Assembly: GCA_964537935.1 (NCBI GenBank)
Contig: CAZICT010000001.1
Coordinates: 134,870 to 198,869, forward strand
Direction: 5' to 3'
Source: an uncultured Candidatus Saccharibacteria bacterium
GTDB taxonomy: Bacteria > Patescibacteriota > Saccharimonadia > Saccharimonadales > CAZICT01
Length of the DNA stretch: 64,000 bases
A program made the translations under genes and the position numbers. The notes under the pieces are model-generated. The model saw only the letters and a list, made by a program, of their open reading frames with translations, was not told the DNA's origin and made no database searches. Shown here piece by piece: positions 2,645-9,900 of the stretch. How positions within the stretch are numbered: the first letter of the stretch is position 1; each line of letters begins with the position of its first letter.

Positions 2645-3400
2645 ATGATTCTACTTGGTATGACCGGGCCTATTAGCCACGGTAAAAGTACATTTGCTAA
2701 TGCCATGCACGAGCTGGAACCGCTTATGATCCACTTGGAGTCCAGTATCGTAATCGCCAGGGTGGCCAACGCATTGCATGCGGTTATGCAGCAGGTTCCT
2801 GACCCTTATGACATTGACCAGCTAAACAAGTGGCTTAAAGAGTTGCCGCCAATTCTAATGGATACGGTTCATGCAACCTGTACCTATGACCAGATTAAGC
2901 TTGATCCTGTACAGATAGAACAGCATCCTGTGGAATATCAAAAGCTAATTATGCACGTCGAGAACTTGCAGCGAAATCCACAGTTGGCACGCCAGGCAAT
3001 TACGCTTGATAACAAAGAGACATATCGTCCGATTCTGCAGTGGCTAGGGGGATATTTGGTACAGAAAGTTGATCCCGGTGTCTGGTATAACGAGATATCA
3101 AGGATGGTGCACGACGCAAAAACCACCGGTGCAAAGCTTTGTATCGTAGGAGGTTTGAGATATCCAACGGATGCGGCAATTCTACGGCATTCAGGCGGTA
3201 TTATTCTCAAAATTTACCGCCCAGGCCATTTGCAGGCCGATATGCTTGACCCGACAGAGCGTGAGCGCGACAACATCCAGGTAGACACCACGATCATGAG
3301 TAACGGTACTGTAGAAGACGTCAAGCGCTGTGCCGCACAAATTCTTGAGGATCTTCGGAATAATGACCTAAAAGTACTGTATCAGACGGTAAATGCTTAA
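2645..3400 (+). CDS. P-loop nucleotide/nucleoside kinase-like protein, substrate unknown
   Basis: N-terminal Walker A (GMTGPISHGKST). The size and layout resemble small dNMP-kinase or dephospho-CoA-kinase type P-loop kinases. I see no further diagnostic motif. Confidence 0.6.
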   Translation: MILLGMTGPISHGKSTFANAMHELEPLMIHLESSIVIARVANALHAVMQQVPDPYDIDQLNKWLKELPPILMDTVHATCTYDQIKLDPVQIEQHPVEYQKLIMHVENLQRNPQLARQAITLDNKETYRPILQWLGGYLVQKVDPGVWYNEISRMVHDAKTTGAKLCIVGGLRYPTDAAILRHSGGIILKIYRPGHLQADMLDPTERERDNIQVDTTIMSNGTVEDVKRCAAQILEDLRNNDLKVLYQTVNA

Positions 3401-3429: not shown

Positions 3430-4257
3430 ATGATTATGCAAAGTATAGAGGTACAGCAAGCTAGCGCCATCAGAGAGTTGGTGTACGACACTCATTCCTT
3501 TGACGAAATTGCCGAACGTTATGGCAATCATTACGATAGTATTATTTACGACCCTCTCACCGACACAGAAGCGTCAGAGCGACTACTAAGCAACGTTAAA
3601 CAGTGGAAAGAAGCAAACGCAACCGTTGTGTTTACTTCAGGAGTATACGATTTAATCCATCTTGACCATAAAGGCTACCTGCTGCACGCCAAACTTGCTG
3701 GCGCACAGTATCACTATGAAAAATATTATCAAAGACATAATGAAGAGTGGCAAAAGCTTAGTATAGCTGATCGGCGTAAGCTCTCTGACGAATTCCTATT
3801 TAGCAACCAATTGCGGCTTATCGTTAGTGTTGACGGCGATAATAGTGTTGCCAAACGGAAGAGTAATGACATTCAAAAGGGAAAATCAAGTAGACCGATC
3901 ACAGGCTGGCTTACCCGTGCGCGCTCGATAGCTGATGTAACTATCCCTATCAGCTCTAGGGGTGATTGGATTCGCATGCCAGTTGTCGATGCTATAACAA
4001 TGCATGGCCCTGAAGACTTTCCAATAGAAAGCTCACACGCATCGTTAATCAATCTCGCAAGTGAACTGCAACCAGACGTATGGACGATATTCGAAGAATC
4101 TGAAGATATTACCAGTGCTGCACCATATGTGGCGTCTCTAGGAAATGTAGCTTTGCGCTGCATTGCGATGGGTGATGGCTCACGATATTTCACTGATCCA
4201 ATTTTGGGAAAGTTTAGTACAACAGCTTTCGTAAAACGCTTTAAGGGAGAAATATGA
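3430..4257 (+). CDS. Nucleotidyltransferase (cytidylyltransferase / RfaE-domain-II-like family)
   Basis: A variant HxGH signature (TSGVYDLIHLDHKGYL), an RfaE-II-like block (LRLIVSVDGDNSVAKRK...SRPI) and a C-terminal FSTTAFVKRF (ISxT-like). With the AAGGAAG RBS, the ATG at 3436 is better spaced than the one at 3430. Confidence 0.65.
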   Translation: MIMQSIEVQQASAIRELVYDTHSFDEIAERYGNHYDSIIYDPLTDTEASERLLSNVKQWKEANATVVFTSGVYDLIHLDHKGYLLHAKLAGAQYHYEKYYQRHNEEWQKLSIADRRKLSDEFLFSNQLRLIVSVDGDNSVAKRKSNDIQKGKSSRPITGWLTRARSIADVTIPISSRGDWIRMPVVDAITMHGPEDFPIESSHASLINLASELQPDVWTIFEESEDITSAAPYVASLGNVALRCIAMGDGSRYFTDPILGKFSTTAFVKRFKGEI

Positions 4258-4697
4258 CTGCGCAGCGTTCACGCAAAGAAGAAAAGATATACAAACACTA
4301 TCAAAAAAAACGCGAACAGAATGGCGAGAAAAACAGCTGCGCCTTTTGTGTACTACAGCCAGATAGCAGTCAAATAGTTAAGCAAACAGTTCACTTTAGA
4401 GTTGTCAAAAATATTTTCCCTTATTCGCTTTGGGATGGCCAACCAGTAGAAGATCACCTGATGATCGTTCCTTTACGTCACACTAATAAATTAGGCAATC
4501 TTCCAGCAGCTGCAACTAAAGAGTTCGTTAAACTTCTGAATGAATATGAAGACAAACGCTATAACATCTATGCGCGAGCGCCGGCTTCGATTATTAAGTC
4601 CGTAACTCACCAACATACACACTTGATAAAGCCACAAGGCAAGAGCCGACGATTTGTGTTGTTTAGCCGTAAGCCATATATACGCGTTAGCTTTTGA
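4254..4697 (+). CDS. HIT (histidine triad) family protein
   Basis: Histidine triad HQHTHLI near the C-terminus and an N-terminal CAFC. It overlaps the upstream gene by 4 nt (ATGA), which suggests translational coupling. Confidence 0.7.
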   Translation: MTAQRSRKEEKIYKHYQKKREQNGEKNSCAFCVLQPDSSQIVKQTVHFRVVKNIFPYSLWDGQPVEDHLMIVPLRHTNKLGNLPAAATKEFVKLLNEYEDKRYNIYARAPASIIKSVTHQHTHLIKPQGKSRRFVLFSRKPYIRVSF

Positions 4698-4747
4698 TTA
4701 TTAGCCTTGCCCTTAGCTTATTTATTCTTACTAATATGATTTCAAGG

Positions 4748-5392
4748 CTAACGAAGAATCAAATCCTCTTCGGCGTATTCAGCTACTGAGGATAATATGT
4801 CAGATGTGTCTGGCATAGATACATAAGGTGCACGCACAAAGTGTTCTCGGCAACGAGCCTGATATTCATAGGTACCGTCTTCAGGCACAAGGCTCGGCAG
4901 CTCACCTAAAACCAGTTGTCCTTTGTGGAGAATTTGACTAAACTGCGCATTGTACTGTTTACAGCAGTCACACACTGCTTTTTTATCAATTACTTCATCG
5001 GGTTTTAGCTCAAACAACCGCTTCATGATGGGCATCATGAGACCCCGATAATCTAAATCCAGTCCAGCAACCACAACTTCTTTATTGCAAGCAAGCCAAC
5101 CAGCAACTATCGTAGCGTTCTCGGGTTTAAACATGTTTATTTCATCTACACCAATAGCATCAAAGTCTTCAGTGATTTCAGCAAGGCTCGCTACTTTAAT
5201 TGCCGGGACCCTTACTCCATTTCTCGATATAATTCCATCATCACGAACGTTCTCGTCAGACTGCGCATAAACAACTTCCATATTGGAATGTTCAAGTGGA
5301 GAAACACGAGCGATAAGCTCCATAGACTTGCCGCTCTTCATTGGTCCGGTTATTACTGTCAAAGGCATCGCTAGAAATATACCAACATTCAA
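4748..5392 (-). CDS. tdk: Thymidine kinase
   Basis: Walker A GPMKSGKSMELI and C-terminal zinc-ligand Cys pairs (CDCC ... ARCREH), as in type II TK. The true start may be the internal Met at 5368 (MPLTVITGPMKSGKS). Confidence 0.9.
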   Translation of the reverse strand: MNVGIFLAMPLTVITGPMKSGKSMELIARVSPLEHSNMEVVYAQSDENVRDDGIISRNGVRVPAIKVASLAEITEDFDAIGVDEINMFKPENATIVAGWLACNKEVVVAGLDLDYRGLMMPIMKRLFELKPDEVIDKKAVCDCCKQYNAQFSQILHKGQLVLGELPSLVPEDGTYEYQARCREHFVRAPYVSMPDTSDILSSVAEYAEEDLILR

Positions 5393-5480
5393 CCAAAAAT
5401 ACAGTTGTAATTTATGCGTTTATGCTTGCTCATACTTTTGACTATAAGTACACTATAATTCAAAAGTGAGAGGGAGCGAA

Positions 5481-6176
5481 GTGGATAGCGCGGGTGTATA
5501 TAGTAATAGCCAGATCAGAGCTGCAATTAAAGACGGCCACATAGTATTTCATCCATATGTTGACAAACATATCGCAGGTAGCAGTATTGATGTTACGCTT
5601 GGCTATTGGTTCTACAGAACCGAACGCAAAAGTAATGGGGGATTTTATAATCCTTTTGACGAGGCAGATGTAGGTCGTTATTTCGATGGACCGTACCATG
5701 CAGATATACACGAGCTTTGGGCAGAAAAATACGGCCGCAAATTATTTGATGGCATACCTGCCGATCATCCGATAATCGTGCTTAGGCCAGGCGAAAGAAT
5801 ATTAGCCCATACACATGAATTTATCGGAATCAAAGCACCTGGCACAAGCACTATGCAGGCTAGGAGCACTTGGGGGAGAAACGGTGTTGCTGTCTGTCTT
5901 GATGCTGGTTGGGGTGACCCGGGATACATCAATCGCTGGACTATGGAAATCTATAATATGAACCAACATGAAAGTGTGGTTTTGCCAGTTGGTGAGCGAA
6001 TTGCACAAGTTGTGTTTTATCACACTGGCCCTGTTGAAGGTGAATATTCTCAAATTAGTGGCAAATATCAATCCGCCGACGATGATAGCCTTGTTTCATT
6101 GATACGCAATTGGCGCCCGGAACAAATGCTGCCACGAGCTTATAAAGATAAACGTCAAAAGCCAAAGGAGATATAG
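5481..6176 (+). CDS. dcd: dCTP deaminase (dUTPase superfamily)
   Basis: Dcd-like N-terminus (SNSQIRAAIKDGHIVFHPYVDKHIAGSSIDVTLG). The ORF track starts at GTG 5466. I prefer GTG 5481, which lies 4 nt after GAGAGGGAG. Confidence 0.85.
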   Translation: MDSAGVYSNSQIRAAIKDGHIVFHPYVDKHIAGSSIDVTLGYWFYRTERKSNGGFYNPFDEADVGRYFDGPYHADIHELWAEKYGRKLFDGIPADHPIIVLRPGERILAHTHEFIGIKAPGTSTMQARSTWGRNGVAVCLDAGWGDPGYINRWTMEIYNMNQHESVVLPVGERIAQVVFYHTGPVEGEYSQISGKYQSADDDSLVSLIRNWRPEQMLPRAYKDKRQKPKEI

Positions 6177-6181
6177 CAACC

Positions 6182-6784
6182 ATGAGGGGTAAGTACATAA
6201 TAATTGAAGGCGGGGAGTATACCGGCAAGTCAACCCAGGCAGCACTTTTGGCAGAATCGATTGGAGCAGTACAAGTCCGTGAGCCAGGCGGTACAGAAAT
6301 AGGGGAAAGGGTACGTGACCTTTTACTTGATAAAGATCTGAATAAAACCCCTTTAACGCAATCCTTATTATTTGCAGCTCAGCGATCTGAACTTGCAGAC
6401 ACAATCATAAGGCCCTCACTTAAAAAAGGACGCGACGTGGTATCGGACAGAAGTTGGATATCAACAGCTGCTTATCAGAGCGTCGATGGTGTTCCTATTT
6501 CTACGATTGAATCAATAAATTCCATTGCGTTAAATGAATTGATACGCCCTGATTTGTGCATCATTCTTGACGGAGATCCAAATGTGCTTATTGATCGAGC
6601 CATTAAGGCCGGGAAAACTGCTGATTTTTATGAGAGCAAAGAGCTTTTGTTTCATGAGAATCTCCGCGAAAATTATCAAAAAGTTGGACAGCTCGTAGGG
6701 GCAGTTACGCTTAGTGCTGTTGGAGATATTGAAGATATCAGTTCAGAGATTAGAAGAACAGTTACAGAAAAGCTTGGAATATAA
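6182..6784 (+). CDS. tmk: Thymidylate kinase
   Basis: Intact P-loop IIIEGGEYTGKSTQ, REPGGT, LLFAAQRSE and DRSWISTAAYQ motifs. A GGAG RBS is present. Confidence 0.9.
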   Translation: MRGKYIIIEGGEYTGKSTQAALLAESIGAVQVREPGGTEIGERVRDLLLDKDLNKTPLTQSLLFAAQRSELADTIIRPSLKKGRDVVSDRSWISTAAYQSVDGVPISTIESINSIALNELIRPDLCIILDGDPNVLIDRAIKAGKTADFYESKELLFHENLRENYQKVGQLVGAVTLSAVGDIEDISSEIRRTVTEKLGI

Positions 6785-6843
6785 ATATTATGTCTTGGCG
6801 CATATGTCAACACTTAAGAAATTAGCATAAAAAGGCTTAGAAA

Positions 6844-9168
6844 ATGGATAAAGGTCTATTTATTGCAATCGAGGGCATAGAGGGTCAGACTAAAGATGCT
6901 CAGTATAGAATTCTTAAAAAAAGACTCACTGAAAATGAATATGACCTTGTTGAATTTAGGTTCCCTCAATACAGTGAAGAATCGAGCTTCTTTACTCGTG
7001 AATATTTGAGCGGCAAATATGGAAACATTGACGATGTAAGTCCGTATGTCGGTTCGCTTTTTGCGGCTCTTGACAGATATCACGCTTCTTTTGAAATCAA
7101 AAAGGCTTTATCAGAGAACAAAATAGTGTTGTGCAGCAATTACACAGGTTGCAGCATGGCGCTTCAAGGAGTGAAATTCCAGAATCCTGAAGAACGTCGC
7201 GGTTATTTTATCTGGCTCGATAACCTTGAGTTTCAAGTTATGCAGCTCCCAAGACCGGATATTAATTTCGTATTGATGGAATCTGCGACTGAACATGGCA
7301 GTCAGCTTCCTATTAACTCCAAGAAAGATAAAGAGCTTAGCCCTCCACTTAGAGCTAACAGGCCGGAAGTGAAAAACATACTCAATGTATATAGCGATTT
7401 GTGTACCCTATTTCCTAAAGACTTCATTCGAATTGACAGCATACGATCTAATAGAGTGCTGTCAGATAGTGATATAAGTGATCTAATTTGGAAAACCCTG
7501 GAATCATCATTGCCGCTTAATAGTAAAAGAAAGGGAAAAGGTAACGTAATGGAAGTGTCAGGCCAAGTCGGAGTAGAAAATCCATATATAATCCGCACAG
7601 AAGAAGGGCTGAAGAGAACTCCTGAGGGAGAGAACTTTTTAGAAGAAGCTGTTACTAATACCAGTGGAAATGTATACGCATTTACGGACAGACTTGGTTC
7701 GCTTACCATTGCTGCAGCAATGGCCAGGCTTTCCAGGAATCCCCATGATATGCGTGATGTGATTCTTGACGAATTCGCTCCCCACGAAGGCAAAGATGAA
7801 GATTTATTAAGACGCGTTATTACAGCCTATGGTGATGATTCTGTGCAGCAACTGGTTGGACAACATTTAGTCGTCGAGGGAGCTAGCAATTTACTAACCA
7901 AGCAGCTTGAATGGGGAAGATTAGCCGCCTATTTAGAGCAGTCAACTCGTTATATATATTTTGACCAAAAAGATAAAGACGGACATTTCAAATACTTCAC
8001 TCCGGAGCAATTAGATAAAAAGACAACCCTGACATACGAAAAGGCTATGGATACTATCTTTGACGCCTATTCAGAGATGGTCCACCAATTAACTGACTAC
8101 TTAAAAAAGACATCTTCTACTCCAGAGGATGAACGTGACGGCGCTTGGAAAGCAGCTATACGTGCCCAGGCATGTGACGCTATAAGGCCAGTTCTTCCCG
8201 TTGCGACCAAGTCAACCGTTGGTATATTTGCCAGTGGGCAGGCACTTGAGGCAATGATTATGCGTCTGCGCTCAAGTGAAAGCCAAGAAGCCCGAGAAAC
8301 AGGATCAAAACTTTTGGAAGAGGCCAGAAAGGTTATACCTACATTCCTCGAACGCGCCGACAAACCGGACAGAGGCGGTGCTACAACTGCTTACCTCTCA
8401 GAAACCCGATCGCAGGTCCAAAGTCTTGCAGAGCGCTTTTTACCAGAAACTCACTCTAGCAACACAGAGGCTGTTAACCTTGTGAATGCAACCCCGAGGA
8501 ACGAACTGGAACTGGTGCCTCATATGCTTTACGAGTCCAGCACGCTCTCACTTGAAGAAATAAAGAAGGCAGTCGACACATTATCTTTAGCTGATAAAAC
8601 TGAAATATTTAACGCCTATATGGGGGAACGGCTTAACAGGCGTCATCGACCGGGTCGGGCTATAGAGCTTGCACACTATTCCTGGGATTTAGTGTGTGAT
8701 TATGGAATTTTTAGAGATCTACAGAGGCACAGAATGGTTGATGAGCTCGAGTGGCAAGCATTAACCCCTAGGTACGGATATGAAATACCGAGATTAGTAG
8801 AAGAGGCGGGATTAAGCGACTTATTTGAGCAATGTTTTGATATATCAGCCAAGCTCTATTCATCGCTACAAGCTGCCGGTTATGAGTACGAAGCACAGTA
8901 TGCGACGCTCCTAGGACATAAAATGCGCTGGAAGGTCACTTACAATGCGAGGGAAGCGTTTCATTTGCATGAGCTGCGTACCAGCCCGCAAGGACACCCT
9001 GGGTATCGAAAGCTTGTTAACCAAATGCACGAAAAATTAGCAGAAGTCCACCCGCTTATGGCGGAGGCTATGAAGTTTGTTAACCGGGGCGAAGATCCTG
9101 AACTGGCTAGGCTTGCTGCCGAAAGATATACCCAATTCAAGCTCAATCAGTTCACAGAAAAATCTTAG
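6844..9168 (+). CDS. thyX: Fusion protein: thymidylate-kinase-like domain with a degenerate P-loop, plus a tandem FAD-dependent thymidylate synthase (ThyX)
   Basis: Residues 1-~230 follow the Tmk layout (LFIAIEGIEGQTKDAQ, FAALDRYHA, RPDINFVL). Residues ~250-774 form two ThyX-like halves. The second keeps the RHR signature (DLQRHRM ... LHELRTSPQGHPGYR). The first is degenerate (ARLSRNPHD). Confidence 0.8.
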   Translation: MDKGLFIAIEGIEGQTKDAQYRILKKRLTENEYDLVEFRFPQYSEESSFFTREYLSGKYGNIDDVSPYVGSLFAALDRYHASFEIKKALSENKIVLCSNYTGCSMALQGVKFQNPEERRGYFIWLDNLEFQVMQLPRPDINFVLMESATEHGSQLPINSKKDKELSPPLRANRPEVKNILNVYSDLCTLFPKDFIRIDSIRSNRVLSDSDISDLIWKTLESSLPLNSKRKGKGNVMEVSGQVGVENPYIIRTEEGLKRTPEGENFLEEAVTNTSGNVYAFTDRLGSLTIAAAMARLSRNPHDMRDVILDEFAPHEGKDEDLLRRVITAYGDDSVQQLVGQHLVVEGASNLLTKQLEWGRLAAYLEQSTRYIYFDQKDKDGHFKYFTPEQLDKKTTLTYEKAMDTIFDAYSEMVHQLTDYLKKTSSTPEDERDGAWKAAIRAQACDAIRPVLPVATKSTVGIFASGQALEAMIMRLRSSESQEARETGSKLLEEARKVIPTFLERADKPDRGGATTAYLSETRSQVQSLAERFLPETHSSNTEAVNLVNATPRNELELVPHMLYESSTLSLEEIKKAVDTLSLADKTEIFNAYMGERLNRRHRPGRAIELAHYSWDLVCDYGIFRDLQRHRMVDELEWQALTPRYGYEIPRLVEEAGLSDLFEQCFDISAKLYSSLQAAGYEYEAQYATLLGHKMRWKVTYNAREAFHLHELRTSPQGHPGYRKLVNQMHEKLAEVHPLMAEAMKFVNRGEDPELARLAAERYTQFKLNQFTEKS

Positions 9169-9171
9169 CGA

Positions 9172-9816
9172 CTATTCCAGGTCTTCATCTATATTGTGCA
9201 ATGCGGTACCGCCAAGCGCATCAAGGTATTGGGGAGGTGTGTTCTTAACGCTTAGGTTTACTTCGTCGTCGGTGAGCTCAAAAACAACTACCGGTTCTAT
9301 CGAAACGGCATATTTAGCACCGATGTCTCCGTTTTCTTCGTCATTATTTAAATGATCAGCCACTATAACCGCGGCATTAGCCAGGCCAGGAAGCTCCAAA
9401 TTATGAATATGCTTAACAACAGCTACCTTATCGCTTGGAGTGGCTTCAGCTATTTGTCGCGTGCGTTCGGAAATGTATCCAAGATCGTCTAGAGCCTCTT
9501 GAGGCGTTGAAAACAAGCCAAGCTTTGAAGCGAGGAGACAGTAAATACCGCGGTGATTATTATCTTCGAGCATGAAGTGTCGTTGAGCGCTCGGAAATTC
9601 CTTGCCAAAGCTTTTGCCATGCTTTTGCCAAATCGAAATAAAATCTTCGAAGATTTCCTCTGCCTGTCTGGCTATGTAATCTTCGGGTGAAGCATCAAAC
9701 TCTTCGCGTCGCCGGTTTGCTTTATGTAGCTGAAGTTGAATATCCGGCGGGATCGAATCGTTGCTATTCAAAGATAAAAATGTGGGGTCAATTTCCATAC
9801 TCACAAACGCTTTCAT
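9172..9816 (-). CDS. Hypothetical protein (214 aa, acidic)
   Basis: Long ORF convergent with thyX. No motif recognised. Confidence 0.6.
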   Translation of the reverse strand: MKAFVSMEIDPTFLSLNSNDSIPPDIQLQLHKANRRREEFDASPEDYIARQAEEIFEDFISIWQKHGKSFGKEFPSAQRHFMLEDNNHRGIYCLLASKLGLFSTPQEALDDLGYISERTRQIAEATPSDKVAVVKHIHNLELPGLANAAVIVADHLNNDEENGDIGAKYAVSIEPVVVFELTDDEVNLSVKNTPPQYLDALGGTALHNIDEDLE

Positions 9817-9900
9817 TATTAATTATTTTTATAGATCTGTCAAGATGCTTACAGTTAAGGTATGTGTGTGAAGTGACAACCGAAAGGAGTAGGGTATGAT

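Follow-up and report, generated by a model that had tools for sequence, protein, structure and literature searches.

How does a kinase domain that has lost its catalytic residues come to be carried at the front of an essential enzyme, with an intact gene of the same kinase family directly upstream? The question is raised by a 774-amino acid (aa) open reading frame (ORF) in a stretch of 64,000 nucleotides, here called the window, that covers positions 134,870 to 198,869 of contig CAZICT010000001.1 (assembly GCA_964537935.1) from an uncultured Candidatus Saccharibacteria bacterium. The ORF encodes a thymidylate kinase (Tmk)-like N-terminal domain (N-domain) fused to two copies of the thymidylate synthase ThyX, and is preceded by dcd and by a stand-alone tmk. 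Based on the analyses reported here, the answer is probably that the stand-alone tmk was inserted and took over phosphorylation of deoxythymidine monophosphate (dTMP), that the fused kinase became a pseudokinase, and that the tandem ThyX stays a working synthase.

The fused kinase domain and its family

The 774-aa protein matches Pfam Thymidylate_kin at residues 9-113 (E 8.7e-12) and Pfam Thy1 in two stretches (E 7.7e-39; 133.9 bits against a gathering cut-off of 24.8), and its best NCBIfam kinase match is PRK07933, a mycobacterial-type model. In an AlphaFold2 model built on 62 sequences, the core of the N-domain has a predicted local distance difference test (pLDDT) score of ~80-92 and two alpha/beta repeats follow the linker, with disorder at residues 150-172 (pLDDT ~35) and in the linker itself (Table 1). 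When the model of the N-domain was searched with Foldseek, the top matches were all Tmk structures, with target-normalised template modelling (TM) scores of 0.68-0.83, and the domain appears, as modelled, to retain the fold of Tmk and of the P-loop nucleoside monophosphate kinases. A first-pass annotation had described the ORF as a Tmk-like domain followed by a tandem ThyX, and had allowed for the N-domain belonging to an unrelated family; the architecture is real, and the Pfam and structural matches place the N-domain within the Tmk family.

The survey of the fusion that the same annotation had proposed returned 4,154 homologues at E<=0.001 from 5.8 billion proteins, with Saccharibacteria as the source of nearly all of them. 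The best 120 of these are 765-798 aa long, have an architecture identical to that of the window protein, and come from Saccharibacteria/Saccharimonadales wherever a source name is given. One of them, P0001, is a strain-level variant of the window protein from another assembly; the other 119 are collinear with it at 61-67% identity and 99-100% coverage. Against the hidden Markov models of the fusion family to which it belongs (type A, see below), the window protein scores 274 bits for the kinase part (fusTmk) and 1023 bits for the ThyX part (fusThyX). Several homologues already carry the JGI label 'thymidylate kinase/thymidylate synthase ThyX', and NCBI labels the Saccharibacteria fusions 'FAD-dependent thymidylate synthase' or 'dTMP kinase'; a literature search found no paper on Tmk-ThyX fusions or on Saccharibacteria ThyX.

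By sequence, the closest solved relative of the N-domain is the thymidylate kinase (TMPK) of Mycobacterium tuberculosis (Mtb; PDB 1G3U, PRK07933; E 2.5e-6), and the residue map given in Table 1 was obtained by aligning the family profile to it (E 7e-24). The Walker A motif does read GIEGQTKD, as first annotated. Its three changes, D13E, G16T and T19A, all fall in columns that are at least 95% conserved, with Lys17 kept, and an intact P-loop (IEGTDGSGK[GST]TQ) is present in 119/119 listed relatives other than P0001, IEGIEGQTKDAQ being found at this position in the window protein and P0001 only. The earlier reading of this motif had relied on replacement both of the Gly before the Lys and of the Ser/Thr after it. 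The former stands (G16T), but the latter is not diagnostic, as the residue after the Lys varies in the Mtb-like Tmk subfamily, and the conserved Thr, Ala in the window, lies one position further on. Beyond the P-loop, R99N amounts to the loss of the catalytic Arg, N104S and H107L, close to it, eliminate the counterparts of Mtb Asn100 and Tyr103, and the four residues deleted from the LID region correspond to Mtb Asp163-Asn164-Tyr165-Glu166. We take Mtb Arg95, Asn100, Tyr103, Asp163 and Glu166 to be residues of the TMP/Mg site, and Phe70 and Arg74 to be, presumably, the thymine-stacking and base-binding residues, respectively. In all, the window domain is without equivalents of Mtb Gly12, Thr15, Arg95, Asn100, Tyr103 and Asp163-Glu166, while those of FPxY and of Phe70/Arg74 are kept. 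The stretch FAALDRYHA, previously considered a Tmk landmark, is in fact not the catalytic DR[YHF] motif, as it aligns to the thymine-binding Phe70/Arg74 helix; the true motif position is at CSNYTG.

The extent of the damage is peculiar to this part of the protein. Among columns that are at least 95% conserved across the 119 relatives, 17/80 are broken in the kinase part (aa 1-230) versus 5/246 in the remainder (aa 231-774; Fisher p 9e-8), and the broken kinase columns are concentrated in the P-loop, LID and substrate helix and not in the hydrophobic core, 63/80 being intact. Identity of the kinase module to its relatives is 48.5%, compared to 72% (standard deviation 8%, minimum 52%) for pairs at the same ThyX divergence, and the window N-domain forms a long branch in the Tmk tree. 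Scores against family models are less telling: the N-domain falls below the NCBIfam cut-offs of both PRK07933 (68.7 vs 193 bits) and TIGR00041 (46 vs 83.25), but so does the intact relative L003 (123 and 77 bits, respectively), which makes the score test weak when taken alone. Base composition was uninformative on relaxed selection or foreign origin, since the kinase part is 6.5 points AT-richer than the ThyX part and intact relatives show an offset of -5 to -8 points. Because the Tmk fold is homologous and residues required for catalysis are lost (P-loop, catalytic Arg and acidic LID residues), the fused kinase domain is almost certainly catalytically inactive, in agreement with what had been proposed from the P-loop.

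The inserted tmk and the fusions of related genomes

The canonical tmk that had been placed directly upstream of the fusion was confirmed as such: its product scores 125 bits against TIGR00041 (cut-off 83), with the motifs EGGEYTGKST (GxxxxGKS), REPGGT and SDRSW (DR) intact. It is 20% identical to the fused kinase domain, and such a low identity implies that it is not a recent duplicate of the fused module. In related loci (n=26), drawn from contigs with P0009 and P0113 plus GTDB genomes, the end of dcd lies at -7 to +50 bp from the start of the fusion gene. Only in the window and in L001, an independent assembly, does a 603-bp intact tmk stand between dcd and the fusion, alongside a dead fused domain. 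The comparison of these loci indicates that tmk is a lineage-specific insertion between the two genes. The closest relatives of the stand-alone Tmk are four proteins at 52-55% identity, followed at ~40% by a broad set of dTMP kinases, a few of them named Actinomycetota, and the gene context of the closest ones, where known, is non-syntenic (one lies beside DHFR/FolD/FolC, the others beside unrelated genes). No donor of the inserted tmk could be named from these nearest homologues and their context, and its guanine-plus-cytosine content (42%) is unremarkable.

The fusions of other Saccharibacteria have the same three modules as the window protein (~770-790 aa) and share its neighborhood, with DNMK, dcd and the fusion followed by L10-L7/L12 and dnaX. 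They differ from it in having an intact kinase module with dcd abutting, whereas in the window the catalytic residues are gone and the stand-alone tmk stands between. Judging from the spread of these sequences, the Tmk-ThyX-ThyX fusion with an intact kinase is the ancestral and widespread architecture in Saccharibacteria, and the locus studied here is a lineage-specific pseudokinase variant of a known, annotated fusion. The pairing of a dead kinase with ThyX, which had been put forward as the distinguishing feature, is thus not a property of the fusion, which is widespread with its kinase intact; the dead state is limited to this lineage and coincides with the tmk insertion.

Looking more broadly, the GTDB loci contain two types of kinase module on tandem ThyX, namely type A (Mtb-like, the family of the window protein) and type B (canonical, TIGR00041-like), the latter with the motif LEGPEGVGKTTQ...VDRNYL and more than 7,000 matches. 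Type A kinases (L002-L022, P0002-P0120) and type B kinases (L023, L025-L035, L037, P0393-P0512) are ~15-25% identical, and the ThyX parts across the two sets are 54-70% identical to that of the window. Two kinase types on one tandem ThyX imply either module replacement or independent fusion. A neighbor-joining tree of the ThyX parts, meant to separate a single from a repeated swap of the type-A and type-B modules, was star-like and did not resolve the two.

A Tmk-family gene lies between dcd and the fusion in three loci, the window, L023 and L035, and in each of them one of the adjacent copies is degenerate. In L023 an intact tmk stands next to a type-B fusion with its D-R replaced, in partial parallel to the window, and broken invariant columns number 40/118 in the kinase versus 11/243 in ThyX. 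L035 is a mirror image of the window, as the inserted copy is degenerate and the fused type-B kinase intact; this copy (L035:2601-3194) is a 197-aa Tmk-like gene with GAPETGKQD and TRSW that scores 34 bits against TIGR00041. The variant found in L023, NGIEGSGKDTQ...ISNYN[FY]L in place of VDRNYL, defines a clade of 7 clusters (P0393-P0399), here called the 'SNY' clade and represented by the loci L023:1830-4112, L042:5001-7280 and L043:10001-12361. Both the K-D of this clade's P-loop and, at the equivalent motif, its S-N-Y recur independently in the window. In a second type-B clade (P0403, P0412, P0413, P0418, P0420, P0425, P0427, P0459 and P0465) the P-loop is intact and D-H replaces the catalytic D-R (VDHSYL). 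We also noted a third Tmk-like group, with FDGPDGVGKTTQ, HGGTPIGEALR and VDRSPLS, 0.8-2.5 kb upstream of some fusions (L020:759-1436, L025:121-747 and L031:1778-2428), 2/3 of which pass the TIGR00041 cut-off.

Among type-A N-domain representatives at 50% clustering (n=110), the three catalytic elements are all present in 78 and all lost in 9, 'F[YF]ALDRY' being kept in 6/9 of the latter. The ThyX part of two of these nine, P0258 and P0333, is recognised weakly or not at all, and a DHFR gene lies next to each of them. They are distant homologues of the fusion (L038:4353-6611 and L039:1274-3130, respectively) in which kinase motifs and ThyX are both degenerate; Thy1 gives a weak match in one and none in the other, and L038 has a dCMP deaminase in addition. 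Such a pattern suggests decay of the whole protein in users of ThyA/DHFR, unlike what is seen in the window. Taken across these families, ThyX fusions have, on sequence grounds, lost kinase catalytic residues repeatedly, with long conservation afterwards in some cases; such loss neither requires an adjacent tmk nor follows from its presence alone.

The tandem ThyX and the gene neighborhood

A Foldseek search with the model of residues 245-774 (530 aa) matched Thermotoga maritima ThyX with probability 1.00 and a target TM-score of 0.62-0.70, over ~222 columns, which is equivalent to one repeat. In sequence comparisons, a pairwise search of each ThyX repeat against PDB gave no ThyX match at E<=10, and a search with the family profile against PDB returned Tmk chains only. 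Repeat 2 was mapped by a 169-column hhalign alignment to TM0449 (low probability, E 0.046) and repeat 1 by a 25-column local alignment to TM0449 residues 68-92, as global hhalign failed to align it; the TM0449 sequence used was verified against PDB 1KQ4, and both alignments are statistically weak. In repeat 1, W357-G358-R359 occupies the RHR position, with Q354, E365, S367, R369 and Y370 kept (window 7900-7953). The ARLSRNPHD stretch, earlier interpreted as a degenerate signature of the first half, is not a degenerate RHR but matches AARVS, a motif near the N-terminus of ThyX; the RHR that had been reported for the second half is indeed there (R628-H629-R630, window 8725-8733), together with N701, R703 and R712.

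Compared to canonical ThyX (PF02511; T. maritima TM0449, PDB 1O26), the RHR, the dUMP-loop S..R-Y and the Asn/Arg are present across the two window repeats together, but the signature is split between them, repeat 1 having WGR where repeat 2 has RHR. The two repeats thus appear to share out the active-site signature residues. As these signature columns are invariant across the family in both repeats, the split characterises the family at large and is not peculiar to the locus. Canonical ThyX is a homotetramer; with two repeats per chain, a dimer of the window protein would mimic such a tetramer, and might have fewer than four complete sites. Five conserved ThyX columns are changed in the window (R299N, D301H, T306V, W580L and D634E), and the TIGR02170 score (65.9 bits) is under the 87.9 cut-off, the tandem form being divergent from single-domain ThyX. 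Duplicated ThyX has precedents: a domain-duplicated ThyX was noted in Chloroflexi and described as uncharacterised (Valas and Bourne 2009, PMC3224940), which is like the window protein in having tandem ThyX in one polypeptide, with no fused kinase mentioned there. Tandem ThyX proteins without any N-domain (526-560 aa) also exist. Within the linker of the window protein an internal ATG is found at 7549 after the purine-rich AAAGGGAAAAGG, 10 codons ahead of the point where these N-domain-less proteins start (ENPY), and could be a candidate start of a kinase-less ThyX.

The gene survey covers the 64-kb window, with the plus-strand cluster read from ORFs and Pfam matches (Table 1). A scan of positions 5300-9900 for promoters and terminators gave counts at the level of shuffled sequence, with nothing between tmk and the fusion, and the only matches of the Rfam and tRNA scans of the window were two tRNAs without relevance to the locus. 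Compared with L003 and L005, where dcd directly follows DNMK (L003:8427-10004 and L005:8391-9951), the window has ~2 kb of extra DNA between these genes (3430-5392), made of the 275-aa ORF, the HIT-like ORF and then the minus-strand thymidine kinase. A VYDLIHLDHKGY stretch in the 275-aa ORF resembles, as judged by eye, a nucleotidyltransferase motif, and a CTP_transf_like and HIT pair is present in L038 too. Directly downstream of the fusion and convergent to it lies an ORF of 214 aa without a Pfam family (9172-9816, minus strand); minus-strand ORFs of 115-208 aa with no Pfam match occupy the same position in L001, L002, L003, L004 and L005.

Table 1. Genes, domains and residues of the locus (window coordinates; Mtb residues are those of M. 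tuberculosis TMPK)
Feature	Position	Strand	Remarks
DNMK-like kinase	2645-3400	+	
ORF without assigned family, 275 aa	3430-4257	+	
HIT-like ORF	4254-4697	+	
Thymidine kinase	4748-5392	-	Pfam TK E 1e-22
dcd (dCTP deaminase-like)	5466-6176	+	First gene of dTTP cluster; Pfam DCD E 4.7e-33
Stand-alone canonical thymidylate kinase tmk, 200 aa	6182-6784	+	TIGR00041, intact motifs
774-aa fusion ORF	6844-9168	+	Degenerate Tmk domain, linker, ThyX repeat 1, ThyX repeat 2
Degenerate Tmk domain (almost certainly a pseudokinase), aa 1-230	6844-7533	+	Mtb-like (PRK07933-like) subtype; Pfam PF02223 E 8.7e-12
Broken P-loop GIEGQTKDA, aa 11-19	6874-6900	+	Family consensus GTDGSGK[GST]T
S98-N99-Y100 in place of catalytic [DN]-R-[YF]	7135-7143	+	Mtb Asp94-Arg95-Tyr96 (D94-R95-Y96); catalytic Arg gone
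LID-region relic, aa 146-176	7279-7371	+	4-residue deletion removes family D-[IL]-H-E
E13			Mtb Asp9; changed
T16			Mtb Gly12; changed
K17			Mtb Lys13; kept
A19			Mtb Thr15; changed
F40-P41-Q42-Y43			Mtb Phe36-Pro37-Arg38-Tyr39; largely kept
F73 / R78			Mtb Phe70 / Arg74; kept (D77 kept also)
S104			Mtb Asn100; changed
L107			Mtb Tyr103; changed
Lys/Gly-rich linker, aa 228-243	7525-7572	+	pLDDT <50; variable among relatives
ThyX repeat 1, aa ~245-510	7576-8373	+	Pfam Thy1 best stretch 286-500
ThyX repeat 2, aa ~540-774	8461-9168	+	hhalign to TM0449; Foldseek
L10, L7/L12, dnaX	further downstream of fusion ORF		

Why a dead kinase module is still there

Under the takeover of dTMP phosphorylation by the inserted gene, which we regard as probable, the ancestor would have had an intact Mtb-like dTMP kinase co-translated with tandem ThyX, in a gene right behind dcd. 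A tmk of an unrelated subtype, either foreign or paralogous, would have been acquired between dcd and the fusion, and would now supply the dTMP kinase activity, and the fused kinase would then have lost the P-loop Gly and Thr, the catalytic Arg, the residues for base/sugar recognition and the acidic residues of the LID. The tandem ThyX, under strong constraint, would be the working thymidylate synthase, in a pathway where dcd provides dUTP or dUMP, ThyX converts dUMP to dTMP, and dTDP is made from dTMP by the stand-alone Tmk. The dead module would persist as a folded N-terminal appendage, because its removal by nonsense or frameshift mutations would mean losing translation of ThyX. For this reason, that the frame has stayed open does not speak for a function, given that any stop codon would abolish ThyX too. 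The situation recalls pseudoenzymes that are retained after replacement by a paralogue or xenologue, in which the fold outlasts the catalytic residues and a neighboring gene encodes an intact enzyme of the family; unlike those, however, the dead module of the window is tethered to an essential enzyme, so that ordinary pseudogenisation would be blocked. That the module has a non-catalytic role (in assembly or stability of a ThyX pseudo-tetramer, or in residual nucleotide binding) and that it is a recent, slowly eroding relic are two sub-hypotheses of this one explanation.

Some evidence on this point comes from strain comparison. When window 5703-7364 is compared to L001:1-1662, which covers the end of dcd, tmk and fusion codons 1-174, 14 differences are found, with none in the remaining 3.9 kb. 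Such clustering points to recombination along a tract, or to an assembly in which strains are mixed. Within codons 1-174 there are 5 synonymous and 3 non-synonymous differences, for a non-synonymous to synonymous ratio (pN/pS) of 0.15 (binomial p 0.011, n=8), and the dead domain may still be under purifying selection.

Several observations weigh against the replacement of the fused kinase by the inserted gene, at least in its simplest form. In the 'SNY' clade the N-domain has 70% identity within the clade versus 74% for ThyX, and an adjacent tmk is evidently not necessary for loss of the Arg, as L042 and L043 are without a tmk in the 9-22 kb examined. Conversely, L020 and L031 keep an intact fused kinase despite a TIGR00041-passing Tmk-like gene 2.5 and 0.8 kb upstream, respectively, and redundancy alone is therefore insufficient. 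The strain comparison consists of 8 clustered differences that may be a recombination tract. Lys17 and the thymine-binding Phe73/Arg78 helix are kept, and some nucleotide binding or residual activity is conceivable. We acknowledge that the complement of tmk, thyA and folA was read from 64 kb of the genome alone, and that an order of events with the insertion first, as opposed to decay first, is one that we infer. The raw association between an adjacent tmk and a dead fused kinase (2/3 vs 0/27, p 0.007) is not relied on as a general rule, owing to the 'SNY' members without an adjacent tmk and to the intact fusions of L020 and L031.

Of the two fates envisaged for the module, that of a functionless relic in neutral decay, kept in frame solely for the sake of the essential ThyX downstream, would fit with the strong acceleration of substitutions and their confinement to this domain, with the in-frame deletion in the LID, whose relic is disordered in the model, with the redundant intact tmk next door, and with the N-domain-less tandem ThyX found elsewhere, according to which complete loss is viable. 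We nonetheless hold it to be somewhat unlikely, as 63/80 conserved columns are intact, the breaks are in catalytic motifs and not in the core, the core is confidently folded in the model, and the 5 synonymous versus 3 non-synonymous differences depart from neutrality (p 0.011, with small n). Neutrality over the whole branch, with ~27% ThyX divergence, would in addition erase far more than 51% identity; the kinase divergence being too small in comparison, neutral decay would have to be recent. The same retention of fold, of FPQY, Phe73, Asp77-Arg78 and Lys17, and the pN/pS of 0.15 could instead reflect recruitment of the dead module as a non-catalytic nucleotide sensor or as an allosteric or assembly domain for ThyX that is actively maintained, for instance by binding dTMP, dTDP or ATP for feedback, or by dimerising two tandem-ThyX chains. 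This possibility gains from the recurrence of Arg-less or P-loop-less N-domains fused to ThyX (9/110 type-A representatives with all three elements lost), from the 'SNY' domain being conserved almost like ThyX, and from 'F[YF]ALDRY' in 6/9 degenerate representatives. We deem it rather unlikely all the same, for the loss of the residues equivalent to Mtb Arg95, Asn100, Tyr103, Asp163 and Glu166 has taken apart half of the TMP site, the lineage consists of two near-identical sequences only, which do not demonstrate long-term conservation of the degenerate state, the 526-560 aa tandem ThyX proteins imply that ThyX has no intrinsic need of the module, and in P0258 and P0333 the ThyX part has decayed too. 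A regulatory, dUMP/dTMP-binding or channelling role for the dead domain, as suggested in the first-pass annotation, is weakly favored at most, and channelling is the less plausible because the kinase active site is gone. In a bolder form, dead Tmk modules on tandem ThyX would be a recurrent selected state, made independently into sensor or assembly subunits in several Patescibacteria lineages (the type-A lineage of the window, the type-B 'SNY' and 'DH' clades, and the 50%-cluster representatives with a degenerate kinase and recognisable ThyX); we find this quite unlikely, and the same low probability would apply to the corollary that such a subunit controls or stabilises a pseudo-heterotetrameric ThyX with active-site residues split between repeats.

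The N-domain could also still be an active (deoxy)nucleoside monophosphate kinase, with an unconventional site or a changed substrate, in which case the two Tmk-like proteins would be distinct and not redundant. Lys17 is kept, the Walker A of Mtb-type TMPKs, with GKRT, is itself not of the classic form, and the Arg-less 'SNY' and 'DH' type-B clades without an adjacent tmk raise the chance that the motif Arg is dispensable. However, the P-loop Gly before the Lys, the Thr, the catalytic Arg and the acidic pair equivalent to Mtb Asp163/Glu166 are all gone, the lost columns are at least 90-95% conserved in the 119 relatives, and the NCBIfam scores are far under both Tmk cut-offs, which renders retained activity very improbable. 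Even less credence, in practice almost none, can be given to two genes, a tmk-like gene and thyX, being joined by a sequencing or assembly frameshift, for which the single internal ATG of the linker (7549), after its purine-rich stretch, might have spoken. The same uninterrupted 774-codon ORF is present in the independent assembly L001, and the fusion is continuous in the 120 listed homologues, in 30 GTDB genome loci and in the type-B series; this artefact, which had been raised together with the original description, was accordingly rejected.

Saccharibacteria, which are reduced epibionts, rely strongly on nucleotide economy, and our results indicate that their route to dTTP passes through an unusual protein of three modules. 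If a replacement kinase did take over, the locus would represent a natural experiment in which the kinase module is knocked out, the synthase is preserved, and the substitute lies adjacent, and it would illustrate pseudogenisation at the level of a domain, in an essential fusion gene that bars the nonsense and frameshift route. The contrast with orthologues such as P0002 or P0009 would allow testing the role of the Tmk module in ThyX assembly, regulation and dTMP channelling. These findings also imply that annotation labels such as 'thymidylate kinase/ThyX' can hide inactive kinase domains. While the practical consequences are modest, the value of this locus would lie chiefly in what it can tell about enzyme evolution and about annotation within this family.

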